Positions 1,583-54,150 of a stretch of DNA of 64,000 nt are shown here, piece after piece. The DNA comes from an uncultured delta proteobacterium. Lineage in GTDB: Bacteria; Desulfobacterota; Syntrophia; Syntrophales; UBA2185. Made by a program: the position numbers and the translations under genes. The DNA lies in contig CAVOID010000007.1 of assembly GCA_963695875.1 (NCBI GenBank), positions 1 to 64,000 on the forward strand. Direction: 5' to 3'. Within the stretch, counting starts at the first letter, position 1, and every line of letters begins with the position of its first letter. The notes beneath the pieces are model-generated. The model was not told where the DNA came from, ran no database searches, and saw nothing but the letters and a program-made list of their open reading frames with translations.

Positions 1583-1679
1583 CTTACAAAGTGTGGGCGC
1601 GGCCCAGATATCGAAATGCTTCATTTCCATTTGTAATCTGGAATAAAACCTGCTTATACTTCAAGCGCAAATCAGAAAG
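1583..1679 (+). repeat. complete C-N36-A-N35-B site (degenerate)
   Basis: CTTAC 1583-87, 36 bp, TTTCCATTTGTA 1624-35, 35 bp, ATCAGAAAG 1671-79. Confidence 0.55.
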
Positions 1680-1748
1680 ACATAACGGATCAGATTGTTT
1701 TTAGTCTTTGTTCTTTAATTTTTCTTAGAATGAAAGGAGTGTATAATT

Positions 1749-2540
1749 ATGGAAGGTCAGAATTTCATAGAAGCAGTTGATTTTATAAGAAACAACCTGA
1801 GGCTCAAGACTTTCCCGGTGGCAGTTAAGTTCTTGAAGGATAAAAAGGAATTCCCTGAAAAAACCCGCCAACCGTCTGTAGCCCTCGGGAAAAGGATAAC
1901 CATTTGCCAGGCCGTTACTATGGCCCGTGTTTATGGATGGACTATGGGCTTGACAAAGGACGATATTATCTGCGTTCCCGCGGCCATTGCCTTCGGCTTC
2001 AGTACGTCAATCAATTCAGCTGATTCTCTGGGGAAGCTCTTCTGTGAGGGAAGCTACTCGAAAAGTGAGGATGTCGGGCGTAAGGAGGCTGCCTCGATCA
2101 AACTATTGGAGAAGGATGAGTATGAAGCCATTTTGCTTTCACCTTTACAAAGGGCGACCTTTGAACCGGATACGGTTGCCTTTTATGGAAATCCGGCTCA
2201 GCTCATGCGACTGGTACATGCTTGGACTTATCGAGAAGGCCAACGCGTTAAGGGTAACTTTGGAGGTAAAGTTGAATGCACCGAATATCTCCTTGCGCCA
2301 TTTAAGGATCAGGTGCCGCATATTGCCATCCCCGGGACAGGGGACCGTGTCTTCTCCATGACTCAGGATGACGAAATTGTTTTTTCAGCTCCAGGTAAAT
2401 ACCTTATGGAAATAGTTCAGGCTTTCAAGGAGGCAGGGAAAAAAGTTGGTGCACAGTATCCTGTGCCTGTTTATCTTAACTTTCAGCCGGAATTTCCAAA
2501 GCAGTTCAAAGAACTCGGAAAAGAGTTGGGTATTCTATAA
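1749..2540 (+). CDS. DUF169 domain protein
   Basis: PVAVKF..CQA...AR..G...C.A..FG and NPAQLMRL...EC...PG.GDR motifs. Confidence 0.85.
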   Translation: MEGQNFIEAVDFIRNNLRLKTFPVAVKFLKDKKEFPEKTRQPSVALGKRITICQAVTMARVYGWTMGLTKDDIICVPAAIAFGFSTSINSADSLGKLFCEGSYSKSEDVGRKEAASIKLLEKDEYEAILLSPLQRATFEPDTVAFYGNPAQLMRLVHAWTYREGQRVKGNFGGKVECTEYLLAPFKDQVPHIAIPGTGDRVFSMTQDDEIVFSAPGKYLMEIVQAFKEAGKKVGAQYPVPVYLNFQPEFPKQFKELGKELGIL

Positions 2541-2645
2541 GTATATAAAGCAAGAATTATTTGCGGAGGGTGATGCCTTTAAAGCATTGCCCTTTGCTTT
2601 TTAAGAAGAATGCCCCCATTCTTATCATTTACTTGATGCCGTTGT

Positions 2646-2996
2646 TCAGGCGAGCGCAGGATACCAGGTGTCGTGGGCTACGAAGTCTTCTTCGATGTCG
2701 TGTGGTTGGTGCAGTGTTCCTTTCGGAATTCTCAGAAAACTTCCCGCGACCAGCGGCACGTCTCCGATGCCTTCGACCCACATCTTGGCCTTGCCCTTCA
2801 GCACATAGATGATGTCGTCCGAGTTCTCGTGTAAGTGCTTCTCTACTTGCGACCCGACCGGCAGGTGAACGAGAGCGCATGTAATGTCAACCTTGTCCGC
2901 TCGTTTGGACACGAGATATGCGACTTCAACGCCAGGCAGTTGCGGATGAGGGTCCCACTTCCGTTCTTCGGGTTGAATAAGCTTATAGTTCTCCAT
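2646..2996 (-). CDS. cupin domain protein
   Basis: H.H..SDDIIYVLKG and IPKGTLHQP cupin motifs; start set at MENYK. Confidence 0.85.
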   Translation of the reverse strand: MENYKLIQPEERKWDPHPQLPGVEVAYLVSKRADKVDITCALVHLPVGSQVEKHLHENSDDIIYVLKGKAKMWVEGIGDVPLVAGSFLRIPKGTLHQPHDIEEDFVAHDTWYPALA

Positions 2997-3038
2997 GTTT
3001 TTCTCCCATTGCCTCACTGTTCCGATAAGGATGATAAG

Positions 3039-3096
3039 TATTTCCAGTTGAAATATTGTAACAGGAAACAATATCAAAAAGCAACACTTCAAGAAG
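3039..3096 (+). repeat. A-N35-B site
   Basis: TTTCCAGTTGAA, 35 bp, TTCAAGAAG. Confidence 0.65.
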
Positions 3097-3131
3097 AAGT
3101 GCTCGCTACCCTCTGTTGGGTCATGTCCCAT

Positions 3132-5784: not shown

Positions 5785-7131
5785 CTAACAGACCTTCGGT
5801 GTCCCTCTCCGGGCCTTAACCTGCCGGACATGCTCCGTGATCGCCGGAACGATCTTGAAAAGATCGCCGACGATGCCGAATGTCGCCACCTCGAAGATCG
5901 GGGCCTCGCGATCGCGGTTGATGGCGATGATCATATCCGAGTCCTGCATGCCGACCAGGTGCTGAATGGCGCCGCTGATGCCGCAGGCGATGTAGATCTT
6001 CGGCCGCACGGTCTTGCCTGTCTGCCCGACCTGGCGTTCCACCGGCATCCACCCAGCGTCAACAGCGCTCCTGGATGAGGCTACCACGCCGCCCAGTTCG
6101 TCCGCAAGCTCCTGCAGGATTTTGAAGTTTTCTTTCGCCATCATGCCCCTGCCGCCGGAAACAATGTACTCCGCGCACCGACGATATCAACGCTGTCCTT
6201 TTGATCGGCATCACTGATGACATCCAGCACCTTGGTGAGGACGTCCTCTTCCTTCATGGTCATTTGTTCCCGGATGATTTCTCCAGTCGCATTCTCGATC
6301 CGGATAGGCATCGGCATGACGTGAGGACGGACCGAGGCCATCTGGGGCCGCCTTTGCTCGCAGACTATCGTTGCCATGATGTTCCCGCCGAAGGCCGGAC
6401 GCGTCTGCAGCAACAGTCCTTTCTCATCGATATCAAGGCCCGTACAGTCGGCTGTCAGACCGGTCCTCAGCTTTGTCGCAACAGCTCCGGCGAGATCCCT
6501 TCCCAGTCCGGTGGCTCCCATAAGGACGATCTCAGGTTTGTACTTTTCCACCAGGTAGCAGATGCTCTCGAGATAAGGGCCTGTCCGATAGTAATGACAG
6601 TACGGGATCATCGATGAGATATGCCTTGGTTGCCCCATAGGCGAATGCTTCCTGACAGAGCCTCTCCACATTGTGCCCGAGAACCACGGCGCACGATTCG
6701 ACCTGAAGCTGCGAAGCCAGTTGGCGCCGACTCCCAGGAGCTCCCAGGAGACCCTGGCAGGGATACAATCGGTCTGCTCGACAAAGACCCATACCCCCCG
6801 GTACTGGGCCAGATAATTCTTCAGCTTTGCCTCTTCGTAGTCTTCTTCCTCAACCGGTGCGCCCCCAATGCCCTTTTCCGCCGCAAGCTGCTTGAGGATT
6901 TCCATCTCCTCCGGGGTAAAGAACATCTCAAGGGCTTCAGCCGGGCAAATCTCAACGCATTTCTGGCAACCGATACATTTATCCGCAAGGATGATGGGCT
7001 CACCCTTTTCATTCATCTCAATCGCTTCCGCCAGGGCAGGCGCTCTGACAGCGCGCTCCGCAGGCAATACACTTGTTGGGGATGAGAGATGCTTTACCTC
7101 GCGGCTTCTTAACTTTTTTCGGTTTGTCCAT
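5785..7131 (-). pseudogene. etfA: electron transfer flavoprotein alpha with N-terminal 4Fe-4S domain, frameshifted
   Basis: [45 protein letters not shown]; several indels. Confidence 0.9.
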
Positions 7132-8025: not shown

Positions 8026-8511
8026 TCAATATTCGTCCAAAACAGAGAGCCCTCGCTCACCAATCAGAATAATCTCGGTATGGTTCAGACGGGTGGCTAT
8101 TACTTTTGCCGTGGCCTGCATGAAATTATATCCTAATGTAATGTCTTTATTCAGCAGCTCCCTGAGTTTAGCTCCATCGAAGGCAATGGCTTTCGAGTCA
8201 TCAATACATCGAGCTCCTAAGGTGTACACATAAGGCTCAATAACTGCTGACCATCCCATAGCATCTCCCTTTGTGATGAGATCCACAGTGACCTGCATTG
8301 GTGGTTTAGCAGTACCCATGTAGGTATCCATGACCAGAACAACCTTTCCCCCTGCCAACATGTAGAGGTTCTTCGCTGAATCTCCCTTTTTCCACAACTG
8401 GAAACCGGCCTTATAAGATTCTTCGGTAGCGATATCCGCCAGTTTTTTGATCTGTTCCTCACTGAACCCTTTGAAAAAATTGTATTGCTTTAAGAGATCT
8501 ACCGAAACCAT
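8026..8511 (-). CDS. stand-alone cyclic nucleotide-binding domain protein
   Basis: cNMP-fold pattern with GDAMGWSAV; no C-terminal HTH. Confidence 0.85.
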   Translation of the reverse strand: MVSVDLLKQYNFFKGFSEEQIKKLADIATEESYKAGFQLWKKGDSAKNLYMLAGGKVVLVMDTYMGTAKPPMQVTVDLITKGDAMGWSAVIEPYVYTLGARCIDDSKAIAFDGAKLRELLNKDITLGYNFMQATAKVIATRLNHTEIILIGERGLSVLDEY

Positions 8512-8922
8512 GAACTGTTACCTCCTTTCTGAATAGTTGGCATGCTTTTTTCCCCTACAGGAAGTGTTTTTCGAAATTGCATATATTATATTTTTAAATA
8601 CTTTTTTCCTTATAAATCCATCAGGCATATTCTGATTTCAACGGTCTAAATCCCTTAGTCAATAAAGGTCAGAGACAGACAGAGTTTTCTGACAGCAAAC
8701 CCATGAAATTCCTGTGTGGATAATTTGGATATAAAAGATGGCGTGACTTTTCTTGATTTTCACATGAAATGTTGGACTGACGGACTGACTAAGAAAAACA
8801 AAAGAGGAAGCCATCTGCATTTTACATAAACGGAAAGCAGACCGTCAAAGTTTCACATGTTTCTGTCGATTAGGAAGAAGGGAATGCAATTGACATCCAC
8901 ACAGATAGTTCATTTGCCAAAT

Positions 8923-9145: not shown

Positions 9146-9153
9146 CACTTCCC

Positions 9154-13323: not shown

Positions 13324-13453
13324 GATTACCGTTTGAAGGGTTGTATGATTGAGAAATCCATCGGGTCATTGACAACAGGAAGGAGTGCTTGATGAAAACA
13401 CCTACAAAGCGAGAGTTTCCGATTTTCAATTGACTTGATGAATACCACTTGTA
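13324..13453 (+). repeat. A-N36-B followed by C-N36-A (130 bp)
   Basis: GATTACCGTTTGAA, N36, AACAGGAAG (13374-82); CCTAC 13401-05, N36, ATACCACTTGTA. Confidence 0.8.
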
Positions 13454-14533: not shown

Positions 14534-14767
14534 GATTACAAGTTGAAATATTGGATAAATAGATGCAAATGGAAAACCAACATAACAGGAAGCTATACTC
14601 AGAAAGAACTTCAGCAAAAATACATAGTATGAAATCATCATATTTTTAAGAATAATTACCATTATCTTAAAGATAATCGGTAGTCGTGAAAGAATTCTTG
14701 CAACACTTGTTAACACCTACAAACAAACGGACTCAAGTCGGTTAAAGTTCATCGACTACCGATGAAA
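14534..14767 (+). repeat. A-N36-B, X palindrome, C-N35-A
   Basis: GATTACAAGTTGAA, N36, AACAGGAAG; X at 14645-72 (TTTAAGAATAA-TTACCA-TTATCTTAAAG); CCTAC 14716-20; GACTACCGATGAAA. Confidence 0.8.
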
Positions 14768-15612: not shown

Positions 15613-15834
15613 TATTTCCGATTGAAATGTAGCATGGTTAGGGAGAAATCAAGATTAACTCTCATAGGAAGAAAGTATCTGAGAAGAAGCTTCTGTTATG
15701 TGAGAGATGAAACACCGGATCGGCATAAGGGTGGTAGATTTAGCAGTTCCGAAAAAATGGTTATTGAAATTGCGTGTTACACCTACTACTGTTCAGTGGT
15801 TGAAAGTTGTCAGAAATGATAATTACCATTTGAA
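15613..15834 (+). repeat. A-N36-B ... C-N36-A
   Basis: TTTCCGATTGAA, N36, CATAGGAAG; CCTAC 15782-86, N36, TTACCATTTGAA. Confidence 0.75.
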
Positions 15835-20731: not shown

Positions 20732-20790
20732 GATTAACGATTGTAATCTTCTATCTATTGCTGAAATCAAATTTTATCGCTTTCAGGAAG
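20732..20790 (+). repeat. A-N36-B site
   Basis: GATTAACGATTGTA, N36, TTCAGGAAG. Confidence 0.75.
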
Positions 20791-23294: not shown

Positions 23295-23548
23295 GATAAT
23301 CATTTGAAAGGATGGATCAATGTTAAAAATGCCGGCCGCTTTGTTTCAGGAAGAACGGATTACACTTAGTTGACTGACGAATATTTTTAAGATTATCAGT
23401 ATTATCTTAAAAATGATCGGCACAGTGCAGATTGCCGCATGAAGAACATACAACGAGAGGAATCAGCGGATAAGCCCTTGCAACACTTGTTAACGCCTAC
23501 GAGTCAATATATTCATGAAGCCGGGAAAACTGAAGATTACCAATTGAA
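23295..23548 (+). repeat. A-N36-B, X palindrome, C-N36-A
   Basis: GATAATCATTTGAA, N36, TTCAGGAAG; X at 23385-412 (TTTTAAGATTA-TCAGTA-TTATCTTAAAA); CCTAC 23496-500, N36, TTACCAATTGAA. Confidence 0.85.
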
Positions 23549-26968: not shown

Positions 26969-27027
26969 GATCAGCGATTGAAATCTTGCATTCTGAAGGA
27001 AATTGCAAAAAACAAGACTACAGAAAG
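26969..27027 (+). repeat. A-N36-B site
   Basis: GATCAGCGATTGAA, N36, TACAGAAAG. Confidence 0.7.
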
Positions 27028-32642: not shown

Positions 32643-32697
32643 GATTACCACTTGAAAGGATGCATATCTGTCAAAATCATCGGATGCTTGACTTCAG
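32643..32697 (+). repeat. A-N36-B site with B split by IS110 #3
   Basis: GATTACCACTTGAA, N36, TTCAG | GAAG (34315-18). Confidence 0.85.
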
Positions 32698-32795
32698 CTT
32701 GCTATATTGTAGTTCGGGATTGAATCGACTTCGAGAATGTCATATATCCTTCCGATGCAAGATTGGTTATTCCAGGAAAATGGCAAGGGAGGGAT

Positions 32796-34067
32796 ATGGT
32801 TATGAAGAAAGCAGATACCGGGAAAGTGAGAGGTGTAAGGGACGACGCGTTGATCGTAGCGGTAGATATAGGAATGGAGATGAATCGGGGATATTGTACC
32901 ACCCCAGACGGGAGGAGCACGAAGACTTTCAAGTTTGAAAATACCAGGGAGGGAATGGATACGCTCTGGGGCATGATTATGGCGAGCAAGAACAGATTTA
33001 AATGTAACGAGGTGATTGTCGGATATGAATCAACCGGTCCCTATGGGGAGCCTATGCTTCATTACCTGATGAAAAAGCCGGTTAGGATTGTGCAGGTCAA
33101 TCCCATGCACACAAAGAGGGTAAAGGAGATAAACGACAATTCTCCGTTAAAGACCGATGAGAAGGATCCGCGGGTCATTGCGGATATCATACGGTGGGGC
33201 CATGCATTGAGCATTGTCATCCCGGAAGGTGATGCGGCGTATTTACGGAGGTTGAACAACTCGCGGGAGAGGCATGTAAGGGAACGGACTGCCCTTGTGA
33301 ACCAGTTACAGCAATTGGTCTTTCTGTTGTTTCCCGAGTTCATGACAGTGATAAAAGATATAAAATGCAAGACACCTCTCTACCTTCTCAAGAGATATCC
33401 GACGCCGGAGGCCATAAGTGTTTTGGACAAGCAGCTCCTTGGCGAAGAAATGAGGAAGCGGAGCAGGGGCAAGTTTAGAGAGCACCATGCGGACATGCTG
33501 ATCAATCTTGCCAAGAATACCGTCGGTATCAGAGAAGGCGTTTCTGGTCTCTCCATGGACATAAGACATATCCTCGTTCAATTGGAGATGCTAAAAAACC
33601 TTATTGCCGAGATAGAGAGCGAGATGGAGATAGCCCTTGGGAGGATACCTTATAGCTCAAAGTTGCTTTCCATAAAAGGGCTTGGCGTAGTATCCGTGGC
33701 AGGCATCATCGGAGAGATAGGAGATTTTAAGAAATTCAAGACACGGTCAGAGATCATGAAACTGGCCGGTCTTGACCTCTACGAGATAAGCTCCGGCAAA
33801 ATGAAAGGACAGCGGAGGATCTCAAAAAGAGGAAGGAGTCTGCTCCGGAAGATACTCTATTATGCGGCGATCCAGACCATAAGAAAGAATGGCATCCTGC
33901 ATGATTACTACACAAGACTGACCGACAGGGGCATGAAAAGGATGATGGCCCTCGTTGCGGTTTCCAGGAAGCTTTTGGGAATCATCTATGCGATTGTAAG
34001 GGATGACAGCGAATATTCAGTCAACTTTGAATCCATGAAAAGGCAGGTGATAAAAAAGGCTGCATAA
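32796..34067 (+). CDS. IS110 family transposase/recombinase
   Basis: AVDIG, YESTG, KTDEKD, IKGLG, AGL....SSG, ISKRG...LR. Confidence 0.95.
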   Translation: MVMKKADTGKVRGVRDDALIVAVDIGMEMNRGYCTTPDGRSTKTFKFENTREGMDTLWGMIMASKNRFKCNEVIVGYESTGPYGEPMLHYLMKKPVRIVQVNPMHTKRVKEINDNSPLKTDEKDPRVIADIIRWGHALSIVIPEGDAAYLRRLNNSRERHVRERTALVNQLQQLVFLLFPEFMTVIKDIKCKTPLYLLKRYPTPEAISVLDKQLLGEEMRKRSRGKFREHHADMLINLAKNTVGIREGVSGLSMDIRHILVQLEMLKNLIAEIESEMEIALGRIPYSSKLLSIKGLGVVSVAGIIGEIGDFKKFKTRSEIMKLAGLDLYEISSGKMKGQRRISKRGRSLLRKILYYAAIQTIRKNGILHDYYTRLTDRGMKRMMALVAVSRKLLGIIYAIVRDDSEYSVNFESMKRQVIKKAA

Positions 34068-34079
34068 GGTATTATTACA

Positions 34080-34230
34080 TAGGCGGGGAGATTATCGTTT
34101 TCTTCCATTGAGGCGCATAGCGACCTCCTACTTCAGAATACATAACTCCCCGTCAACATCCTAACCTCAATTGAGCAAGGTAAAAGCGTTTCATACGACT
34201 TTCAAATTACAAGGGTTGGGTAGGATGTCA
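34080..34230 (+). ncRNA. putative bridge RNA of IS110 #3
   Basis: Two stem-bounded loops containing all four guide segments. Confidence 0.85.
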
Positions 34231-34410
34231 TACAACAAGATGGGGATAACCGCCTATGAAAATACCTTCAAACATAAAATACATATGAAAAATATCTTGA
34301 CTGGAATAAACAAGGAAGAAGCAGAGTGTCGGCACAAGGGCCGTGGGAAGCCAACCGAAAATGGCACTTTAAAAAGTTGCTTTCGGCTACTAAAGGTGAA
34401 ACCGAGATTG

Positions 34411-36269: not shown

Positions 36270-36537
36270 TGAGTCAAGTAGACCGGTTTCTCCCCATTGA
36301 ACGTAATAAATACAAAACCCCGCACTCTTTTTGAGTAACAGGGTTTTAATAATCTCTTCATGGCACCACCCTTACAAAAAGGGTTCAGATTAGTTGTTAA
36401 CCTTTCGACGATGCCCTATTTAAATATGATTATTTTTGTGCTCCCAATTCTTTAAAAAGTCAAGAGACAAATTTCATTGATAACCATTTGAAAGGGTGCA
36501 TATCTGTCAAAATCACCGGATACTCCCTTTCAGGAAG
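36270..36537 (+). repeat. D motif, weak C-N36-A, A-N36-B
   Basis: D at 36270-96; CTTAC 36371-75, N36, TGCCCTATTTAA; GATAACCATTTGAA, N36, TTCAGGAAG (36479-537). Confidence 0.75.
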
Positions 36538-41210: not shown

Positions 41211-41269
41211 CTTCCTGTAATATGGTTTTTATAATTCAGTCAATCTCGACAGCACTTCAAGTAGCAATC
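41211..41269 (-). repeat. A-N36-B site
   Basis: + strand reads CTTCCTGTA, N36, TTCAAGTAGCAATC. Confidence 0.75.
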
Positions 41270-42935: not shown

Positions 42936-43095
42936 CTTCCTGTAATCTAGTTTTTCTCAACTTGTTGCTCTATGCAATATTTCAATCGATAATCCTTATT
43001 CCTATCAACAAAAAAGGCAGAGCCACTCGACCCTGCCTCTCCGATGAAAGTTAAAAATTAGTTTACTCTTTAACCTTTTTTCTTACTCCTGCCAA
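42936..43095 (-). repeat. A-N36-B plus terminator; ~160-bp repeat, copy 1
   Basis: CTTCCTGTA, N36, TTCAATCGATAATC; matches 45584-45745. Confidence 0.85.
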
Positions 43096-43098
43096 GCC

Positions 43099-44409: not shown

Positions 44410-44583
44410 GAATAAATCTCCTTCCTCCAATGATAGGTGGCGGCACATAAATGAGGGACGGCGAGAATAGCTGTCCCTCATTCATATTTGATAATACACT
44501 AAAGTAACTAATCATCTGAAAGGGATGCGGCGAAAAGAACAGCCAATATAAATGCAGATAAGAGATTCGGAAGAGGAAATTGT

Positions 44584-45420
44584 TTAGTGAGGTCGATAAT
44601 ACCTCATGGCTTCGGGGACTAGGGCCTCAATCTGCTTTATCCGTGTCTCTGGGGCAGGGTGGGTTGACAAGAATTCAGGTGGTTTGCTCCCCCCCTTCTC
44701 ATTCATCCTCTGCCAGAAAGGAACAGCGGCTCTCGGATCATACCCCGCCCTCGCCATTAAAGACAGCCCTATCCGATCTGCCTCAGACTCATGGATACGA
44801 CTGTAGGGAAGCAGGATTCCCACGTTTGTCCCCACTCCATAAGCGGCCATGAAGATATCGCTCGTGGGTCCTGGCTGTGTCGAGAGGGCAACAGACAGTC
44901 CGACCGCTCCGAGCTGAGCCAGGAGCCCTTGACTCATCCTCTCATTTCCATGTTTGGCGATGGCATGGGCGACCTCGTGGCCCATGACAACCGCCAGCCC
45001 GGTTTCATCGCGGGTCACCGGAAGGATGCCTGTGTAAACCCCTACTTTACCGCCGGGCATGCACCAGGCATTGACCGTTTTGTCATCCTGGATCACATTG
45101 AATTCCCATTGATAATTCTTGATCTCCGACTCCATTCCGGCTTCTCTCATGAATTCCTCGGAGGCCCGCGCTATTCTCGTCCCTACTCTCCTTACCATCT
45201 GCACCTTTGCAGTGTCGTTCGAAAGTTTTGATGTTTTCAAGACTTCACTGTATTGCTGCAAGCTCATACTCGCCACTTCAGAATCCGGAAGTATATGCAA
45301 GCTACTTCTTCCTGTTACGGGGACAGTGGCACAGGACAGAATGACCAGCAAAAATCCGATGATTCCCATGCTGAGAAAAAAATGAGAAACTCTACCTTTC
45401 AAAGTATATAGGGTTTTCAT
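44584..45420 (-). CDS. M48 family metallopeptidase lipoprotein
   Basis: NAWCMPGG, HEVAH, ESEAD, LSTHP. Confidence 0.95.
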   Translation of the reverse strand: MKTLYTLKGRVSHFFLSMGIIGFLLVILSCATVPVTGRSSLHILPDSEVASMSLQQYSEVLKTSKLSNDTAKVQMVRRVGTRIARASEEFMREAGMESEIKNYQWEFNVIQDDKTVNAWCMPGGKVGVYTGILPVTRDETGLAVVMGHEVAHAIAKHGNERMSQGLLAQLGAVGLSVALSTQPGPTSDIFMAAYGVGTNVGILLPYSRIHESEADRIGLSLMARAGYDPRAAVPFWQRMNEKGGSKPPEFLSTHPAPETRIKQIEALVPEAMRYYRPH

Positions 45421-45583
45421 AAATACCTCTCACTTGTCCCGGCTTCTGAATTCTATTATCCTATTGGACTATATTTTTTTCAATCCATTTTTTTACACAT
45501 GGTTGATGTATGCCTCACCATTTTTGTCCTCGCGGTTTGAGGCACTTTGGAGGTGAACTAAACAACCTCCTTTTTATGATTTC

Positions 45584-45745
45584 CTTCCTGTAATCTAGTT
45601 TTTCTCAATTTGTTGCTCTATGCAATATTTCAATCGTTAATCGATAAAGTGGGTAAATAAAAAAGGCAGGGCTAATCGACCCTGCCTTTCTGTTGAAAGT
45701 TAAAAAATTAGTTTACTCTTTAAACTTCCTCCTCGCTCCTGCAAC
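45584..45745 (-). repeat. A-N36-B plus terminator; ~160-bp repeat, copy 2
   Basis: CTTCCTGTA, N36, TTCAATCGTTAATC. Confidence 0.85.
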
Positions 45746-45847
45746 CCAAATTAAACCAAGACCAAGAAGAAGTATGGTGTTGGTTTCTGGGGTCATGGCA
45801 AGTGTTATCAAGTTAAGATCTATGTATTAAATAATCTGTGATGCTGA

Positions 45848-46033
45848 TTAAAAAAAAACGTCTTTATATTTTTTATTTAACGCTTTTGCAACCTTCAATT
45901 CAGAATACTTTCGTGTTGGCAATCCTTTTTCCATCTTTGTAATGGTCTGAGGGACTAATTCTGCTCTCCGTGCAAGTTCGGCAATGCTCAGAGGAATAGA
46001 TTCACGAAGCTGTTTTACTTTATTTCTTCTCAT
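45848..46033 (-). CDS. XRE-family HTH regulator
   Basis: N.VKQLRE..LSIAELARRA....TI.KMEKG. Confidence 0.8.
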   Translation of the reverse strand: MRRNKVKQLRESIPLSIAELARRAELVPQTITKMEKGLPTRKYSELKVAKALNKKYKDVFF

Positions 46034-46418
46034 ATATGATTGAAAAGCTGACCTTATGTTACGAACTTATTATAAATTATGTAAAGCGAAAATCATCATT
46101 CACATTTAATGTATTTTAATATTAATCAATATTAATCAATATTGTCTGTTATTCTTATTATCGCCAACTTAATAGCAAAACTTTAGAATAAATTTTATAT
46201 GCCTAAGTTTCTATCCAAATGAATTAATGGGATACTTTACTTCAGCTGAGATAGCCTTTGCTTCGTCCTGAAGTTTTGATTTACCAATTTTACCTATTTA
46301 TACTACATTATAATAGAAAATAATCAAAAGCAGCAGAATTATAACTTTAAATGTGGTACATAGACAACATAACCTACGAATATGACCATTAACGATCAGC
46401 ATGTAAAGGAGAAGGGAT

Positions 46419-47657
46419 ATGAGAAGACTTTATCTCGTGCTCTGTATTGTTTTACTTGTGGCGGGATGCAATACAACGCGTCCTCCCGGTCCTACCTGTA
46501 ACCTTCACTTGCTACCTGAAGCTCAAGCAATTACCTCCCCAACGCTGGCCCCATTAACAGGCGATGACCATACCACCCGGACAGGGAAACTGATTGCTAC
46601 TAAATCATCGCCGTCAATTCTGTTGCTTCGCGAAAAGATCTCGAAGAGCTTTGAGGCGCGGCGTAAGAAAAAGCTGAGAACAATGACACCGTCAGAGGAA
46701 AGCTTCGTCGTCCTATTGCTGTCGGCTGGTGGCCAGTATGGCGCATACGGTTCCGGGTTTCTGAAAGGCTGGAGCGAGAATGCTCAACTAATGCCTCGCG
46801 ATAGTATTGACGTAGTTACTGGTGTCAGCACAGGTGCTATGATGTCCACTTATGCTTTTCTGGGCTCATCGGATGACCCCGTGGTCAGGGCAAAGTATGA
46901 CGATCTTCTGAAAAGAGAATATACCACCCTACACGACGAGGACGTGTTCCGCCGTCGCTGCCCCATAGAACTGCTGTGGGCGAATTCTATTTATGATAGT
47001 GAGCCGTTACGAAAAAGAATTGAGGACACCATCACCGAAGGCCTCCTCGATGAAGTCGTAACCGAGGCGGATAAGACCCATCGTCTACTGTTTGTTGGAG
47101 CAGTCAACACCAACTCCGGCGAGTTCGACGTCTTTGATTTGGTGGCCATTGCTAGGGATAAGAATCAGGACCGCAGGGCGTGTTACACGGCCGCAGTGCT
47201 CGCCTCTGCAGCCATTCCTGCCACTTTCGATGCCATATTCATAAATGGCAAAATGTATATTGACGGAGGAATCCGCAGGCAAGGGTTTTTTGTCGAGCAA
47301 GCAGCTACTGCCCTGCCGAATGTCAGGGTCAAAAAAATATTCGGTATCCTTCACGGAAACCTCGACGTGCCGTCGACCCCAAAGACGAAAAATAATCTGA
47401 TAGGCGTTGTATCGCGTACTGTTTCTATAGCAAACGACGAACTACTAATCGATTCAGCTTTCTATGTAGATACAAAAGGGAAAGATAATGGATTTACAAG
47501 ATTCTGGACAGCACCAGTCAAGTCTACATGTGAGTCGACATCTCCAGAGGGTCACAAGTTCGACCCCGGCTTTGGTACCTGCCTATGGAACAAAGGGTAT
47601 GACGATGCGAAACAGCAAAAACCATGGAAGACGTTAGATGAACTTCTGCAACAATAG
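46419..47657 (+). CDS. patatin-like phospholipase lipoprotein
   Basis: SAGGQYGAYG, GVSTG, ASAAIP, DGG. Confidence 0.9.
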   Translation: MRRLYLVLCIVLLVAGCNTTRPPGPTCNLHLLPEAQAITSPTLAPLTGDDHTTRTGKLIATKSSPSILLLREKISKSFEARRKKKLRTMTPSEESFVVLLLSAGGQYGAYGSGFLKGWSENAQLMPRDSIDVVTGVSTGAMMSTYAFLGSSDDPVVRAKYDDLLKREYTTLHDEDVFRRRCPIELLWANSIYDSEPLRKRIEDTITEGLLDEVVTEADKTHRLLFVGAVNTNSGEFDVFDLVAIARDKNQDRRACYTAAVLASAAIPATFDAIFINGKMYIDGGIRRQGFFVEQAATALPNVRVKKIFGILHGNLDVPSTPKTKNNLIGVVSRTVSIANDELLIDSAFYVDTKGKDNGFTRFWTAPVKSTCESTSPEGHKFDPGFGTCLWNKGYDDAKQQKPWKTLDELLQQ

Positions 47658-47757
47658 TGGCTATGGACCGTCCTTGAAACAAAGAGGTCTTTGGGGTAAT
47701 AAAATATATAGATGTCAAGGCGGTTATGATTTCTCAAGTGCATAGATTGCTACGGTG

Positions 47758-47816
47758 CTTCCTGAAAGAGTGATTTTTAAAAATCTCGCCTCGATACAAC
47801 ATTTCAAGAGGTAATA
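47758..47816 (-). repeat. A-N36-B site
   Basis: CTTCCTGAA, N36, TTCAAGAGGTAAT. Confidence 0.8.
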
Positions 47817-48077
47817 AAGAATCTCATTCTGGTGATGAAGTGTTTTCCATATCGTAACCCCATGGAAGGTGCGTAATTTGTGGAGAAGTCTTCAATCTGA
47901 ACAGAAGTCATTGCCGGAGCTTTTCCTATCAATAATTCTTTATTTCTATTGGATAAAACTTACAACTAAACAGTTCTAAAGAATTAATGCCCCGTGGATT
48001 AATACGGTTTGAATCTTAAGACTGGATGATGTAAGTTAAAATTAAATTTGAAAAATAGAATACGAAGGAATCATCCT

Positions 48078-48608
48078 ATGCAAGGACATAGCAAGAATAT
48101 ATTCATTTATTTAACCGCTGTATTTTGTCTTTTCTTTTCTGTTAGCTGTTTTGCACAGGCCGATGCGGTCAAGCAGTCGAAGAAAGACATTAAGGAGATT
48201 AACGAGAAGAATAAGAGCACAAACACGGGTGACCCGTGGACGATAGAAAATGTTATTACGGTTGATGAGCTCGTATCGCTGTTAAAGAAACAAGGTTCAA
48301 AGGATGTTTATATCTACCATATAGGTTTTAATAATCATTATACAAAAGGACGCATAAAAGGCGCGTTGTATGCAGGCTCTGCATCAACAGAAGAAGGTTT
48401 GCAGAAGCTTGAATCTTCCATTAAAGCTTTGCCCCACGATACGGAAATCATTCTTTACTGCGGCTGCTGCAATTGGGTTGACTGCCCCAACATCCGCCCC
48501 GCATTTGAAACTGTCAATAAGATGGGCTTTAAAAATGTAAAAGTTCTTTATCTGCCCGATAATTTCACTGTTGATTGGATGAATAAAGGGCTCCCGGTTG
48601 AGAAATAG
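48078..48608 (+). CDS. rhodanese-like exported protein
   Basis: GRIKGA, LYCGCC...CPN, DW..KGLPVEK. Confidence 0.85.
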   Translation: MQGHSKNIFIYLTAVFCLFFSVSCFAQADAVKQSKKDIKEINEKNKSTNTGDPWTIENVITVDELVSLLKKQGSKDVYIYHIGFNNHYTKGRIKGALYAGSASTEEGLQKLESSIKALPHDTEIILYCGCCNWVDCPNIRPAFETVNKMGFKNVKVLYLPDNFTVDWMNKGLPVEK

Positions 48609-48623
48609 CTGACCCTTTAACTC

Positions 48624-48682
48624 CTTCCTGAAATCAATAGACCTGCCGTTCTCGCATGAATACAAGACCTCAATGCGTAATG
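48624..48682 (-). repeat. A-N36-B site
   Basis: CTTCCTGAA, N36, CTCAATGCGTAAT; starts 16 bp after the rhodanese stop. Confidence 0.7.
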
Positions 48683-48740
48683 ATCACGTCCTTTAGACGA
48701 TCATTAACACACCACCCCACATCTTTTGGTCACTCTTCCA

Positions 48741-48769
48741 TTGACACACAAGGACGCTTTTCTTATACT
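48741..48769 (+). promoter_or_regulatory. repeated sigma70 promoter P
   Basis: TTGACA-N17-TATACT. Confidence 0.8.
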
Positions 48770-48835
48770 CCCTCCACGAAAAAGGAAGTTCTTATCAATT
48801 CAATAATTCAATTATCATAAATCTGGAAGGCTGAA

Positions 48836-49768
48836 ATGGATATCACATCCGCTCTCCTCATCGTCCTGGGGCTTGCCCTCTTCGAATCGATCACTAGCAT
48901 CGACAACGCCATCATCAACGCTGAGGTCCTGCGGGGCATGCAGCCCCGGGCGCGGAGGTGGTTTCTCACCTGGGGGATTTTTATTGCCGTCTTCGTCGTC
49001 CGGGGGGTTCTGCCCTGGCTTATCGTCTGGGTCATGACACCGGGCCTCGGGCCATGGGATGCCCTAACGGCAAGCTTCACCGCTAATCCTGCAGCGCTAG
49101 AGGCCATTCAGTCAAGCTCCCCGGTCCTGCTCATGGGGGGCGGGGTATTCTTCATCTTCCTTTTCTGCCACTGGATCTTCCTCGAGCCCAAGAAGATAGG
49201 CCTTCCCGTCGAGCGTCTCATCGCTCGACATGGGGCTTGGTTCTATGCCGTCGTCTCAATCGCCCTGATGCTTATCGTCTGGTTTGCCCTTGATGACAGC
49301 CGCATGCTCGCCTTCGGAGCCGTCGCGGGCTCATCGGCCTTCTTTATCACCCACGGTTTCAAACGCTACGCCGAGGAGCAGGAGGCACGCATTCTTTCCG
49401 GCGACGGGCACATGTCCGTCATCGGGAAGATCCTCTACCTCGAGGTGATCGACCTGACCTTTTCCATCGATGGCGTTGTAGGGGCCTTCGCCTTCACGCT
49501 GTCGGTGCCCCTGATCCTTATTGGAAACGGAATCGGCGCTATCGTCGTCCGGCAGCTCACGGTCTACGGCGTCGACAGGATTAAAAAATACGTCTATCTC
49601 AAAAACGGTGCCATGTACTCCATTTTCGTCCTGGGCTGCGTGATGCTCGCACACGGCTTCGGCCTGCACGTCCCCGAGTGGGTCACGCCCCTGGCTACCT
49701 TCCTCATCGTCGGCTACTTCTTTTTCAAGTCCAGATGGCAGGCCAGGAAAGCCGGAGAGTTATCCTGA
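48836..49768 (+). CDS. DUF475 (TerC-like) membrane protein
   Basis: SIDNAIINA, YLEVID.TFSIDGVVGAF. Confidence 0.9.
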   Translation: MDITSALLIVLGLALFESITSIDNAIINAEVLRGMQPRARRWFLTWGIFIAVFVVRGVLPWLIVWVMTPGLGPWDALTASFTANPAALEAIQSSSPVLLMGGGVFFIFLFCHWIFLEPKKIGLPVERLIARHGAWFYAVVSIALMLIVWFALDDSRMLAFGAVAGSSAFFITHGFKRYAEEQEARILSGDGHMSVIGKILYLEVIDLTFSIDGVVGAFAFTLSVPLILIGNGIGAIVVRQLTVYGVDRIKKYVYLKNGAMYSIFVLGCVMLAHGFGLHVPEWVTPLATFLIVGYFFFKSRWQARKAGELS

Positions 49769-49951
49769 ATAAAAAGGGAAGTGGCCGTGGACGGCATGGT
49801 TACGCTAACTGGTTGTTGTCCTGCTTCTCTCGCCATGCCTCTTCTTTATTCCGATCCCGGCACCGGATGGAGATTTTTATAAAGCGTTCTTCTCCGCACT
49901 GCCTTTTGAAGTATTGTATATTTCTTCAAAAGACCGCCACAACTGTCAATT

Positions 49952-50233
49952 CTATTTTTTTGCCAGTTGTCTTGCCCAAAGTGTCAGCCAGATGACGACA
50001 AATATCATCATTCCGACGCCGAGCTTATATGCCACCATTGCCCACAGCCATATAGTGCGAATTTCCGGCCATGTAACACCTTCACCCCAGAAGCAAAGTA
50101 TTCCTGCCGGCTGCCTGGTCATGATCAGCAAATAAGCAAACCATTGGATCAGCAGGATACAATAGGCGATTAACACAGTCCACCATCCAGCCATTGCCGC
50201 CGCCCGCACTTTTTTTATAAATATTTCATCCAT
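49952..50233 (-). CDS. small membrane protein
   Basis: Two hydrophobic segments. Confidence 0.7.
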   Translation of the reverse strand: MDEIFIKKVRAAAMAGWWTVLIAYCILLIQWFAYLLIMTRQPAGILCFWGEGVTWPEIRTIWLWAMVAYKLGVGMMIFVVIWLTLWARQLAKK

Positions 50234-50536
50234 ACTTAACCCCCATATCTTTTTATTCAAATTTATTTGTAAGCTACAGTTCAGTCAATGGTATTTTATC
50301 ACCATTCTTATTTATAGTCTTCCTTACAGAGGTTGCAATCAGTATTGATCCCCCAAGTGTTCTGTCATCTGAAATTTTATGAGTATATTACAAAAAGAAA
50401 GAGTGAGTTTTTTTAGGAGGGATGATTCATTTCTCGGAGTGGGGCATTATTCCTCAAGAGAGAGGAAAACTATCTCAGCAGGGATGGGATAACATTGCCA
50501 ATCTTTCAAAGTTATGATCGTATCCCGGTATATCCT

Positions 50537-51484
50537 TCAAGGCTGGAACTCTCTCGCCTTTTCCACCTCAAAACGGCTCCCGATGTAGATCGGAGAACGC
50601 TGATTAAGTTCCTCCACCTTGATAGACATGAGATCCTGTTTACCGTCCGTGGCCATACCACCGGCCTGTTCAATGATGAATGCCATGGGCTGAAGCTCAA
50701 ACAGAAGCCGCAATTTCCCTTGGGGATTCTTCTTTAGTGCAGGGTATGCAAAAACGCCCCCCCTCTTAATCAGAACCTGATTGACATCCGGCACAAATCC
50801 GCCACTGTAACGGAGCTTATACCCTTCCTTTTCCAGGAAATCTATGTATTCAAGGTGTTCCGGAGTCCAATCCCTTCTCAATCCTCCCAAGCTGTAAATG
50901 TCTCCCCGTTCTCTTAAGGTTATGTTTTCCTCAGAAAGAATGTATTCCCCTTCTCTGTTCAGTACAAATTCATGGGTTCCCTTTCCTGCAGAATAGACCA
51001 TCGTAATCAGCGGTCCATACACAATGTACATGGCTGCCACCAATGTTTTTCTCCCCTCGGCTAACATCGACTCTCTATGAATGCCTATTATCGTTCCTAT
51101 GGACAGATTCGCATCCACTAAAGAAGAACCGGCCAAAGGATCTGCAGTGACGAAATATTTTTCTTCTCCCTTGCCGATCTGAATCACTGAATCCTGTTCT
51201 TCTGAAGCATATGCTCTGACAAATCCTGAATCCTGGAGTTGATTCTTGAGAATCTCATCGGCGCTTCTATCCATAGTCAATTGCTCTTCACCGTGACGGA
51301 AAACGCGAATGTTCCTAAAACCAGCCAGTTTCCGATTCGATTCTTGAATTTTAGCAGAGATATACTTCCCTATAACGGCTATTTGCCATATCAATCTGCG
51401 TAATTCCATTTCCACACCTGATTTCCACATATGTCTGCGCAGGTCGACGATAAATTTTGTGTAGTCCGAAATCCCCTCTCCCAT
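50537..51484 (-). CDS. fbp: class 1 fructose-1,6-bisphosphatase with an altered motif
   Basis: GEEQ, SEE, DPLAGSS, LRYSG..VPD, GKLRLLFE. Confidence 0.9.
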   Translation of the reverse strand: MGEGISDYTKFIVDLRRHMWKSGVEMELRRLIWQIAVIGKYISAKIQESNRKLAGFRNIRVFRHGEEQLTMDRSADEILKNQLQDSGFVRAYASEEQDSVIQIGKGEEKYFVTADPLAGSSLVDANLSIGTIIGIHRESMLAEGRKTLVAAMYIVYGPLITMVYSAGKGTHEFVLNREGEYILSEENITLRERGDIYSLGGLRRDWTPEHLEYIDFLEKEGYKLRYSGGFVPDVNQVLIKRGGVFAYPALKKNPQGKLRLLFELQPMAFIIEQAGGMATDGKQDLMSIKVEELNQRSPIYIGSRFEVEKAREFQP

Positions 51485-51579
51485 GGGCGTTCATCCTTAT
51501 AAAATATTTGTCTTTTTATAACAATTAATAATCATTTTAACAAGCGCATTTTAATTTTTCCGAGAAGATACCCATCAAT

Positions 51580-51638
51580 TATTAACGCATGAAAGCCTGC
51601 ATATCAATCGATGCTGAAGATTTGAGGAGTGCAGGAAG
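51580..51638 (+). repeat. A-N36-B site
   Basis: ATTAACGCATGAA, N36, TGCAGGAAG. Confidence 0.65.
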
Positions 51639-51761
51639 CACTAAATGAGTCGTCTATCACTCATTATTTGAGACAATAATGATCAGAATTTTATAATACA
51701 CCTGTATGGGTAGTGATTCATACTAGCGTTTTCTTCTCTATCTTTGCAGTACCGCGGTATA

Positions 51762-53529
51762 TCAATCAGCACCCTGCTCTTCGAGAATCTTTTTTACATG
51801 GTCGAGGGCGCGGCGTATATATGTTTCATCAAATTTTCCCACAGGAGATGATATCTCGAAGATTCTTTTCGGGATGCGCAGTTCGTCCAGGGAAAATCCT
51901 TCTTTTGTTTTAAACCGGTACTTTTCGCGATAAATTTCTGTGCCGATCCTGTTGATGTCTTCAAGTTTCAACTCGAATCCAAGTAAAGGAAGCAGTTTCG
52001 ATACAATGTCAGGCGTATAGATTCCCCTCGCGAAAAAACAGACGACCAGGCTTGATAATATCTGACGCCATCTTTCCTCCTCCAGGAGCATATCGGCGAG
52101 TTCCTCGGGACTGACTTGTTTTTGGGCAAGCACTTTCTGGTCAATACTGTAGCCTGCATTGTCCAGATGGCTGTGTCGCAAGCCGATTAAATTTCCTACA
52201 TGGGTACCGGGGCCCGTATGGTATCCTGCCATTTCATTCTTTCCAAAGGCAAGGGCGGAATCTCTATTTCCATATATTGAGGCAGCGTATTCGACACCCT
52301 TTGCCAAGGCCATGTAAAACTCATTGGGCTGCTCAGTGATCAATCTGCTACGCATTTATGTATGGCACCGGATCTCCCCAGGAGAATTTAATCCCCATCG
52401 TTTCTTTTTCAGAGATGAGTCCCTGTTCCTGTGCCTCCGTTACCCATGCCAGAACGACACCAGTGCTTATGGCATCCATCCCCCATGTCTCGACACTATC
52501 CATCAATTTCAAGATGCCCTCGGGATCGGAAATACCCAGCATGGAGCCTAATGAATATATAGGTTCATAGTCGTAGGATATCATGGACGTCTTATAGTAA
52601 TACGGTTCATCCTCATATGGTTCTCTGAATGCAGCGATATGGATGCACCCCACAGGACAATGAGAACAGGCCAACCGCCTGCCCAAATATCCCGCTGCAA
52701 ACGCCTCACCGGAAATCGCATCCGCTTTCTCAAAGGTTGCCTCTTTTAGATTTCTCGTGGGGAAACCACCGAATTTATTCAGTGCTATGATATTCTCGGC
52801 GGTTCCCAGATCGTGATATTTCTTCATGACAGGGGATTCTACCGCTGTCTGATAGATTTCCTCATACATTTTTCGGTAAAGCTTTGTGTCGACAACAGGC
52901 ACTGATGATTTTCCGGAGATGGCAATCGCCTTGAGTTTTTTACTTCCGAAAACGGCGCCCAATCCCAATCTGCCAAAATGACGATAAGTCTCCGTCGTTA
53001 CACTGGCATATGAAACAAGGTTTTCCCCGGCCTTGCCGATTCGCATGATCGTGCGCAAGCCTCCTCCCGTCTCATTCTCTCTGATGATACGCCCCGTTGC
53101 GGAACTGCCCATCCCCCACAATGAGGAGGCATCACGAAAGTACACCTTGTTCCCATGAATGGATAAATAGATGGGGATATCACTGGCACCTTTAAAGACA
53201 ATGGCCCCGTATCCGGCCATACGGATTGCGACCGCGCTTCTACCGCCACAGTGGCTCTCTCCCAGGTTGCCGGTATGGGGAGATTTAAACATGGCGACTG
53301 TTTTGGAGGCCAGAGGGAACACTGACGTAAGGGGACCAACCGCGAATATGATCGGGTTTTCCGGGCCGATAGGATCGCAACCTGTGGGACATTCTTCATG
53401 AAGAAGCTGTATGGCCACGCCGGTGCCTCCGATATACCTGTCAAAAAGTTCAGGCCTCTTTTTCGTCATGAAGGTTCTGTTTGATAGGTCTATATAAAGG
53501 ATATTGGCAAGGGGATCATCTTTTAACAT
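51762..53529 (-). pseudogene. aldehyde:ferredoxin oxidoreductase, frameshift near 52350
   Basis: KSPHTG..GES..GG, GR.GLGAVFGSKKLKA, C..CPVGC, GMDAIS. Confidence 0.9.
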
Positions 53530-53935
53530 GGTCCACCCCCTCCTTTTTCTCCAATCCCAAGACCTTGTGGGGACAGAATTTGACGCAGTAACCGCAGTGG
53601 ATACAGATCATGGGTTTATTTGTGGTATCATCCCATAAAATGGCTCCAATAAGGCAGGCATCCTGGCAGTGCCCGCATCCTATGCATTTCTTCATATCGA
53701 GGCGAACGCCGCCGTCTTTTCTTGGCTCCAGAGCATTCGTTGGACAGACTTTCGCGCAGGGAGGATTATCACAGGCCCGGCAGACAATGACTGTAAAACC
53801 CCGCTCCATCCCTCCGACGGACTTCACGGCAATACAGGCCTTGGTGAGGCCGGCCTCATCCTGCCTGCGTGAGCACGCGAACATGCAACATTGACAGCCT
53901 ACACATCGTTCTGTTTCCAATACCGCAAGTCTCAT
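53516..53935 (-). CDS. 4Fe-4S dicluster protein (AOR partner)
   Basis: Four Cys clusters. Confidence 0.9.
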   Translation of the reverse strand: MRLAVLETERCVGCQCCMFACSRRQDEAGLTKACIAVKSVGGMERGFTVIVCRACDNPPCAKVCPTNALEPRKDGGVRLDMKKCIGCGHCQDACLIGAILWDDTTNKPMICIHCGYCVKFCPHKVLGLEKKEGVDHVKR

Positions 53936-53961
53936 TGACTTGTTCCTTTCGCTCTCATATC

Positions 53962-54150
53962 TGAGTCGAGTAGACCAGTTTCTCCCCATACCACAGGTTG
54001 AGGTTTGTTTTCTCCGTTTACCGCTTGGTTTCCCAGCGGTATCACAATATTTTAATCTTATATCAGATTTCTTAAGGCTTTGCATACCAATTACTACTAC
54101 TTGTAATCTACGACTGAACTCCAAAATTTTATTCTAACAGTTACTGGAAG
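53962..54150 (+). repeat. D motif, degenerate X, A-N36-B
   Basis: D at 53962-54001; CTACTACTTGTA, N36, TACTGGAAG (54092-150). Confidence 0.7.

Follow-up and report, generated by a model that had tools for sequence, protein, structure and literature searches.

What marks the junctions between the gene modules that make up the first 64 kb of contig C7 in the assembly of an uncultured delta proteobacterium of the order Syntrophales (G000; 2.86 Mb in 16 contigs, ~46% G+C)? We call this whole stretch of 64,000 nucleotides the window. An earlier reading, made from the letters alone, had listed 18 copies of a dispersed two-block element between positions 1622 and 54150 and had proposed that they delimit single-gene or few-gene modules; we refer to it as the sequence-only reading. 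Our analysis shows that the element is a 59-bp site of fixed length with near-invariant blocks, that it recurs throughout the family, and that one of its ends, carrying the word CAGGAAG, is a hard boundary at which homology stops. The explanation that we favor, with a confidence somewhat short of an even chance, is that the element is a protein-recognized end or recombination site of mobile gene modules in Smithellaceae.

Copies were called with an iterated weight matrix (position weight matrix, PWM) trained genome-wide and applied at a cut-off score of ≥18. Scores are bimodally distributed; 95 copies pass in the genome, and 18 places pass in the window. All 18 copies listed earlier carry the motif and 17 of them score between 21.9 and 64.5; the remaining one, at 1622 and with an N35 spacer, falls below 8, and a copy at 8755–8813 on the forward strand (score 27.0) had been missed. 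The claim of a fixed spacing is borne out. The pattern TTGWA-N38-CAGGAAG, which corresponds to the N36 of the sequence-only reading plus WW, has nine matches in the window, where 100 shuffles predict 0.02, and genome-wide the N38 spacing peaks at 25 matches, other spacings from 27 to 49 giving one to six each. The single exception is N30, whose excess (13 matches) arises because the motif holds a second TTG word. We refer to the GATTACC end of the site as its A side and to the 11-bp CAGGAAG end as the B block. As an exact word, the GATTACC proposed for the A block is not enriched (nine matches in the window, 6.9 expected), and two of the nine, at 13324 and 32643, lie inside sites; the A block is better described by the looser ATTACC.

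From 134 distinct copies in many genomes we derived the consensus tTTGAT-GATTACCGtTTGAAATgTTGCAT-N8-AAAAT-N3-AAAATCA-n-gATTACAGGAAG-nA. Conservation in this set is 97–100% at TTG, AA, AT and CAGGAAG, with the proviso that the set was chosen by pattern, so that the positions of the pattern itself reach 100% by construction; the blocks free of this bias are TG.AT, the A-tracts, and the ATT that precedes CAGGAAG. The interior is free and the length is fixed at 59 bp, and most copies have only the conserved blocks in common, their interiors being mostly unrelated. ATTAC occurs as a direct repeat at both ends of the site, 47 bp apart, and between the repeats lie three TTG words and two A-tracts (site positions 32–36 and 40–44) spaced 8 bp apart.

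Comparison of site regions within the genome yielded 32 in-register alignments, 23 of which contain the site interior. The right ends of these 23 fall at positions 58–61 (11 alignments), 63–70 (four), 46–54 (six) and 19–22 (two), and none reaches beyond the B end by over 11 bp; on the left, or A side, the ends range from +8 to −237. The other nine start inside the B block (positions 46–59). Taken together, these two sets indicate that the interior is invariably linked to the A side, and in no case to the B side. Eight of the nine B-side alignments stop 32–44 bp past the B end and thus define discrete tails of ~40 bp, which follow about one site in six. In keeping with these tails, the 120 nt that follow B ends hold seven occurrences of the word CACCTACWA, where 0.08 would be expected. 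Tail family 1, which is able to form a small hairpin, is represented in the window at 13383..13409 (+), where it ends in CACCTACAAAG, and at 45544..45583 (−), as a hairpin-like sequence of the form AAAGGAGG...CACCTCC. Family 2 lies at 54151..54188 (+); 36 bp of it are shared with the tail of the site at C11:292233, and it resembles the tail of that at C12:91314.

Individual sites illustrate the boundary. The site at 13324..13382 (+, PWM 39.7) recurs with 181 bp of A-side flank at C11:135773 and with 223 bp in the complete genome G007, and both alignments end exactly at CAGGAAG. The site at 36479..36537 (+, PWM 56.3) and ~170 bp of A-side flank are found in several genomes, in alignments that end at or near the B end, and the site at 26969..27027 (+, PWM 50.2) is repeated at C11:218224 together with 186 bp that include a sigma-70-like promoter. 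Two sites in the window, 42936..42994 (−, PWM 60.5) and 45584..45642 (−, PWM 64.5), are near-identical to each other, as are ~97 bp of their A-side flanks, comprising a terminator and the 3′ end of a gene. The additional copy at 8755..8813, whose B block is degenerate, has ~140 bp of A-side flank in common with three other copies in the genome. The converse arrangement is seen at 20732..20790 (+, PWM 51.4), where the module on the B side has a counterpart at C11:220330 and the homology sets in within the B block.

The proposal that sites mark module junctions also holds between genera, with CAGGAAG again as the homology boundary. When two 20-kb stretches of the window were compared with 22 genomes of the family, their modules were found on different contigs even within the genus. 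Alignments, which do not represent independent events, ended exactly at B ends at q5212, q9585, q1382 and q15027, and within 10 bp of B ends at q15629, q15639-15649 (five alignments), q12634, q11355 and q15032. The accessory, second FBPase gene of the window (50537–51484), linked to the site at 51580..51638 (+, PWM 39.0), provides a detailed case. Its product is 89–97% identical at the amino acid level to copies in five genomes of another genus, and only 86–87% identical to the genome's own other copy and to those of same-genus genomes. At the DNA level, 92–97% identity to G018, G017 and G013 begins ~40 bp beyond the stop codon and extends across the gene and the entire site; in all four genomes the homology ends right after CAGGAAG and is followed by four different flanks. 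G019 retains only the A half of the site, and G014 has none. No site was found at any of 21 loci of the other, core FBPase type. The site-less accessory FBPase of G014 (G014:C26:209440-213384, locus L152) lies between two copies of a ~44-bp direct repeat that includes a CCAAC...GTTGG palindrome and may represent another type of boundary repeat.

Several further modules begin or end at B blocks. Homology between the region of site 23295..23353 (+, PWM 40.8), linked to a DUF4404 gene at 22784–23224, and G013 stops 2 bp beyond the B end. A PEMT module in G009 begins 5 bp after the B end of site 26969, and a G016 homologue (95% identity) starts exactly at the B end of the site at 41211..41269 (−, PWM 43.7). 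The B end of site 45584 is exactly where an M48 peptidase module of G007 ends, and a rhodanese module in G014 ends 9 bp inside the B block of the site at 48624..48682 (−, PWM 35.8). The aldehyde:ferredoxin oxidoreductase (AFOR) module of G007, 94% identical over 2.3 kb to that of the window, begins in the B block of a different site, on the A side of which lies the glucan-synthase gene, in an arrangement opposite to that of the window, which suggests exchange at the B block. For a NifU module beside a site, identity across genera is 93.5–94.5%. In G007 this module has sites on both flanks; in G000, 9 nt separate the B end from the downstream nifU ribosome-binding site, and the nifU promoter region seen in G007 and G013 is missing. 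At the NifU, HemN/TetR and radical-SAM/DUF374 loci, the genes that flank the site lie apart in other genomes. Modules beside sites are 92–97% identical across genera, a level that is typical of transfer.

The remaining copies in the window are as follows. The degenerate N35 copy at 1622..1680 (+) lies 87 bp outside the end of an IS110-family insertion sequence (IS) that terminates at 1535, and the weak copy at 3039..3097 (+, PWM 21.9) has its B block shifted by one base. The site at 14534..14592 (+, PWM 49.9) is 49 bp upstream of the start of a minus-strand gene (13763–14485), and another lies at 15613..15671 (+, PWM 38.4). On the minus strand, the site at 46264..46322, described earlier as degenerate, scores 53.4 and lies 97 bp upstream of a patatin-like gene (46419–47657); that at 47758..47816 (PWM 52.9) is upstream of a rhodanese-domain gene (48048–48608), and 48624 is upstream of a TerC/DUF475 gene. 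The last copy, 54092..54150 (+, PWM 33.9), stands at the upstream end of a ferredoxin/AFOR operon. As previously reported, one site is split by an IS: site positions 1–55 occupy 32643..32697 (+) and end in ...TTCAG, an IS110-family element of 1,617 bp follows at 32698..34314 (+; transposase 32763–34067), and the rest of the interrupted B block, GAAG, is at 34315..34318 (+). Contigs from four DNA runs break or diverge at or near 42971, 43007, 45659, 47758, 47774 and 47781, one run-contig joint skips 43038–45749, and single runs have almost no cover at 36664–37991 and 51936–52599 (X2) and at 43304–45295 (X4). None of these was counted as evidence, since the run contigs are short, were placed at 90% likeness, and break at repeats.

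Where do the copies lie with respect to genes? With open reading frames (ORFs) called crudely, as the longest non-overlapping frames of at least 70 amino acids, 87 of the 95 genome copies fall outside ORF calls. The statement that all copies are intergenic is therefore right for most of them, the exceptions in the window being 3039 and 54092, each of which overlaps the 5′ end of a long ORF call. Tandem intergenic regions hold 53 of the 95 copies, convergent regions 18 (19%) and divergent regions 24, and the corresponding shares of intergenic length are 0.60, 0.16 and 0.23. Copies thus follow the lengths of the intergenic classes without avoiding convergent or divergent regions, which argues that they are neither plain promoters nor plain terminators and agrees with the sequence-only reading on the former point. 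That reading had named 42936 as the single copy between convergent genes; 41211 is placed in the same way. In tandem regions the orientation is strongly biased, with the B end facing the stop codon of the upstream gene and the A end facing the start of the downstream gene in 46 of 53 cases (46:7, p=4e-8). Of all 95 copies, 70 have an A-side gene that is read away from the site, and only 31 have a co-directional gene on the B side. Sites are also clustered: 34 of 83 gaps between neighbors are shorter than 3 kb (9.5% expected), 38 of 46 neighbor pairs less than 5 kb apart are on the same strand, and contigs C7 and C11 together carry 52 of the 95 copies. The genes linked to these local same-strand arrays and to other sites have no functional theme in common. 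Distribution in other genomes is broad, with 55 matches across much of the G007 chromosome as several small clusters and many singles, and 99 matches on ~50 contigs in G014.

Several results bear on whether the site acts as DNA or as RNA. When the 95 copies were aligned together with their 60-bp flanks, complementary covariation was absent from every pair of columns; mutual information peaked at 0.35 and no helix emerged. Rfam gave no match at gathering thresholds across the window and none at E≤1 across 41000–55000, and no tRNA was found within the window. A fixed length, near-invariant blocks and a free interior that lacks pairing fit a putative protein-bound DNA site, as had been suggested, and not an RNA. 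Strict sigma-54 words were found in none of the 95 flanks; TGGTAC is common to four A-side flanks, without a −12 element. As a sigma-70 promoter the site is anomalous, its best word pair being spaced by 15 bp and not by 16–18. A survey of PF04542 found no family-specific sigma factor and no co-occurrence of this domain with the motif. The sigma-70 family of G007 consists of RpoD and one 286-amino-acid sigma factor, and sigma frames of 286 to 300 amino acids, which were not compared further, also occur in motif-free genomes. Sigma-70-like promoters separate from the site are predicted 4–60 bp beyond the A end in several flank families; linked genes with such promoters of their own do not need the site as a promoter. 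No small ORF family was found on the B side among 90 candidate ORFs, and a mini-ORF within the site (ATG...TAA) was rejected as not conserved.

The element is concentrated in one family. We scanned 21 sampled genomes of the same family and 19 from other families of the order with a sequence-only model (R1) built from 15 window copies. All 21 family genomes carry matches, from 6 to 119 each. Among the other 19, 13 have at least one match, mostly six or fewer, and six have none; two are outliers, with 124 and 17. An exact-pattern scan of a species collection returned at least 135 stretches. Among the 80 matches listed, about 12 are titled outside Thermodesulfobacteriota or "delta proteobacterium", and the rest are metagenome-assembled genomes of Syntrophales, Syntrophaceae, Smithellaceae or Smithella. 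Viral contigs gave 16 pattern matches, of which only four pass the matrix, with one site each. We found no description of such a site in the literature on Smithella and Syntrophales repeats, integrons, gene cassettes or promoters, as judged mainly from search listings and without supplements. The gene content of the window, which includes ETF, CCG-domain proteins, AFOR and rubrerythrin, fits an anaerobic syntroph.

We looked for an enzyme that accompanies the sites, the sequence-only reading having suggested a search for a co-occurring tyrosine or serine recombinase. Surveys of PF00239, PF01797, PF04986 and PF00589 revealed no recombinase family that tracks motif counts. Serine recombinases (PF00239) were not found in 11 of the 21 family genomes, among them the complete G007 and G016 (87 matches), and a res or inversion site was rejected on these grounds. 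Y1 transposases (PF01797) were not found in G007, G016, G032, G002 or G021 and are present in motif-free genomes. Y2 transposases (PF04986) were found in 10 of the 21 family genomes, not the motif-richest, and not in G000, G007, G013, G014, G016 or G032; six Y2 loci contained no R1 match and had no site within 1.5 kb. At G017:C306, G017:C184 and G003:C138 an IS91-type Y2 gene lies directly beside a gene for a ~305-amino-acid tyrosine recombinase, and such two-gene elements are largely confined, among 41 genomes, to the family that carries the motif. Tyrosine recombinases are few, with two in G007 (both Xer-type), three in G004 and four in G005, despite 66–67 matches in the latter two. In G000, two recombinases adjoin sites; both are of generic type and patchy occurrence, and score far below the NCBIfam cut-offs for integron integrases. 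One of the candidates considered, a tyrosine recombinase by the site at C5:2408, is found in five of 41 genomes and was rejected as patchy; recombinases of this type adjoin a site in G000, G014, G015 and one G032 locus, and not in G006 or at the second G032 locus.

The view that the window holds no candidate recombinase needs qualification, as it contains three IS110-family (DEDD) transposase genes, one of them in the element inserted in a site. That element (32698–34314) cuts the B block at CAG|GAAG, having used it as a target, and is the sole IS110 copy examined that was found in a site. IS110 transposases (PF01548) are present in 19 of the 21 family genomes and in four of the 19 others, with exceptions in both directions; G011 has 41 motif matches and no IS110 match, and the one IS110 element of G007 is not inserted in a site. 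A 322-amino-acid IS110 gene common to G000 and G007 proved to belong to an ordinary 1.25-kb IS outside any site. Positions 1–1535 of the window and of G000:C8 hold the same IS110-family element, with 99.5% identity over 1,535 bp; two contigs that start with it indicate that the assembly breaks at this IS.

The site has points in common with several known systems, and does not qualify as an attC, dif/Xer, REP, MITE, res or IS91-type end. It resembles attC sites, formerly called "59-base elements", in being a ~60-bp site linked to one gene, with a putative crossover at its far edge, same-orientation single-gene arrays and diverse exchanged cargo. It differs in lacking RYYYAAC...GTTRRRY ends and dyad symmetry, ATTACC and CAGGAAG not being complementary in 134 copies, and in usually lying upstream of a linked gene that has its own promoter. 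The earlier statements that the site has no attC ends, no consistent hairpin and no likeness to repetitive extragenic palindromes (REPs) are confirmed by position frequencies and the lack of covariation and palindromes. The idea of an integron-like array is not: there is no integrase or attI platform and no single array, and in G007 the 55 matches are dispersed in a genome with two Xer-type recombinases and no serine recombinase. In Xer-dependent systems, such as plasmid pdif modules and elements that exploit XerCD, short sites bound gene modules that have no dedicated recombinase gene, and G007, with only its two Xer-type enzymes, would fit such a scheme. Against it, the motif has no two-arm core (two 11-bp arms around a 6–8-bp center) and no likeness to the host dif site. 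The likely chromosomal dif is the 28-mer ATGTCTTATAAGATATGTTATGTAAACT (G000:C8:248972-248999), which resembles neither A nor B block; of five genomes tested, four (G007, G013, G004 and G005) have it as a single copy, with one or two mismatches, and G008 gave no match. Another word that resembles dif, at C6:17000, is found only in G000 and can be attributed to chance.

Among dispersed repeats, REP/REPIN-RAYT systems and miniature inverted-repeat transposable elements (MITEs) are intergenic and lineage-specific and occur in tens to hundreds of copies per genome. The motif is similarly dispersed, intergenic and lineage-specific. It lacks the palindrome of REPs and their co-occurring Y1 gene (none in G007, G016 or G032), and it lacks the terminal inverted repeats of MITEs and has unrelated interiors, most copies sharing the blocks only. 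IS110/IS1111-family elements are known to target repeats, including REPs, attC sites and transposon ends, and in one case, the window element lying precisely in a B block, the same is seen here; other IS110 copies lie outside sites, and targeting accounts for where an IS lands and not for the nature of the site. IS91/ISCR rolling-circle elements undergo one-ended mobilization, with one precise and one ragged end, and carry variable adjacent DNA. Modules here also have one precise and one ragged end; unlike in the IS91 case, no site was found within 1.5 kb of six Y2 loci, Y2 genes were not found in the motif-richest genomes, and the site has no hairpin.

We propose, tentatively, that the element is a protein-recognized end or recombination site of mobile modules, and we infer that its boundary is made by site-specific recombination or transposition through an enzyme acting on it. 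Each site is physically tied to A-side DNA, often a promoter region with one or a few genes transcribed away from it, and the B block is the joining point for DNA of different ancestry. In the proposed mechanism, a protein may bind the ATTAC and TTG words that recur in the site, the DNA could be bent by the two phased A-tracts (32–36 and 40–44), and strand exchange or end cleavage might take place inside the 11-bp B block or at its outer edge. It is also possible that the ~40-bp tail is the other half of a larger composite site. A bolder and rather unlikely version would be a new chromosomal gene-cassette system, in which a ~100-bp composite site, made up of a 59-bp accessory arm ending in a ATTACAGGAAG crossover block and the ~40-bp tail, serves an unrecognized recombinase, or an enzyme of the DEDD/IS110 type that acts in trans, for the excision, insertion and inversion of single-gene cassettes that bear promoters and are traded between genera of Smithellaceae and at least one neighboring family. 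Several observations weigh against recombination of either kind. No enzyme for the site was found in the surveys described above; there is no single platform, sites being scattered over many loci; and the module boundary away from the site is ragged. Several genomes also have in common precise junctions that lack the motif, such as those near window positions 24463–24468 and 22745. We saw neither excised circles nor empty sites, nor target duplications, the last not being assessable. The edge of a conserved word is in any case a likely end point for an alignment, and part of the hard boundary could reflect motif conservation combined with frequent rearrangement. Finally, shared units are often only the site and 120–240 bp of non-coding flank before unrelated genes, which also fits a mobile regulatory element.

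This last possibility, a cis-regulatory or architectural protein-binding site carried on a reusable upstream unit (a "mobile promoter"), with junctions that are the ends of units and not products of catalysis, is doubtful, though to be taken seriously. It would account for the direction of the A-side gene (away from the site in 70 of 95 copies), for the separate sigma-70-like promoters 4–60 bp beyond the A end, and for units of site and flank that precede unrelated genes, such as a four-copy family found before a cyclic-nucleotide-monophosphate (cNMP)-binding gene, an ABM gene and others. Strict conservation in G007, which has no extra recombinases, implies a resident binding protein. The reuse of upstream sequences whose mobility is unknown has been documented (PMC3575422), and those putative mobile promoters likewise place highly similar upstream DNA, of unknown mode of movement, before unrelated genes. 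They differ in sharing overall similarity, whereas the present copies share a 59-bp frame with a free interior. Applied to our sites, the comparison is mixed: several families of site and flank precede different genes, promoter activity being predicted only, and 18 of the 95 sites have no downstream gene. Among the points against the regulatory explanation, such convergent sites (19%) are not fewer than the 16% expected by length. Sites are not kept at orthologous positions, core FBPase having none at its 21 loci; flanking genes at the NifU, HemN/TetR and radical-SAM/DUF374 loci lie apart in other genomes; linked genes have no functional theme; and an asymmetric site of 59 bp is unlike the usual operators.

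Were the site instead the conserved end of a non-autonomous miniature element of ~100–300 bp (site, tail and/or A flank) mobilized in trans, the genes would be mere neighbors and their mosaicism would have another cause. We consider this improbable. The distribution over intergenic classes is that of random insertion, families of site and flank recur without shared genes, and the discrete ~40-bp tails, with their excess of CACCTACWA, would be natural parts of such an element; several other families of short dispersed repeats are present in the same genomes. Young MITE families do not, however, have unrelated interiors at a fixed length, and here terminal inverted repeats are lacking, gene and site move as one unit in four genomes, the tandem orientation is biased 46:7, and no autonomous partner was found. 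Very improbable, in our estimate, is a complete promoter for a lineage-specific factor, read from GATTACC toward CAGGAAG and starting just past it, with small RNAs or short leaders (the tails) and, at times, mRNAs as its products. The fixed spacing of a TTGAAA word and A-rich hexamers, conservation that ends where a transcript would begin, the hairpin of tail family 1, and the B end 9 nt before the nifU ribosome-binding site in place of nifU's own promoter region are all compatible with it. Yet a co-directional B-side gene is present at only 31 of 95 copies, TTGAAA and the A-rich hexamer are 15 bp apart, there is neither a small ORF family downstream nor an Rfam match, G007 has only RpoD and one 286-amino-acid factor of the sigma-70 family (frames of 286 to 300 amino acids, not compared further, occur in motif-free genomes too), and nifU could be read through from the co-directional gene upstream.

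Smithellaceae are key syntrophic degraders of fatty acids and alkanes in peat, sediments and digesters. If the sites are ends for recombination or transposition, the family would possess a gene-shuffling system invisible to current finders of integrons, ISs and repeats. Such a system would explain the extreme mosaic of its accessory regions and would point to an undescribed recombinase or to an undescribed use of a known one. Under the regulatory explanation, the same copies would represent a lineage-wide 59-bp protein-binding frame, present at ~50–120 copies per genome, with no known binder. In either case the motif model is a direct handle for phylogenetic profiling, DNA affinity purification sequencing (DAP-seq) and long-read population studies.

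Other features of the window and genome were noted in passing. Two further dispersed repeats lie at 21501–21850 and 21139–21399; one of them (~350 bp) has four more copies in G000 and several in G019, and the other (~250 bp) is found in most family genomes. At module edges elsewhere in G000 are a ~85-bp dispersed repeat (L209:1183-1268, contig C4), with many copies in G005, G007 and G013, and a ~120-bp repeat (L204:866-990, contig C3), with many copies in G001, G002 and G007. The AFOR gene at 51762–53529 is read as two ORFs that divide at ~52350. One base is absent at 52350 from contigs of two runs (X4, 16.9 of 16.9 depth; X5, 6.1 of 11.7), and the split may thus be a strain variant or an assembly error. 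An ETF alpha-like gene at 5785–7067 also appears as two ORFs, of 119 amino acids and of 308 amino acids with a ferredoxin-like N-terminus, reflecting either a frameshift or a real fusion or split. The region at 54381–63206, which resembles GH94 and cyclic beta-1,2-glucan synthases, comprises four or five overlapping ORFs and has a G+C content of 52–63%, against ~44% in the rest of the window; an 8.7-kb region of G007 is 93.5% identical to it. Small paralogous proteins that consist only of a cyclic-nucleotide-binding domain number three in the window (including 8026–8511 and 40200–41136) and four in the C11 array (L178, C11:222998-227607), and the block at 39699–41149 is 93% identical to C11:226657-228057.

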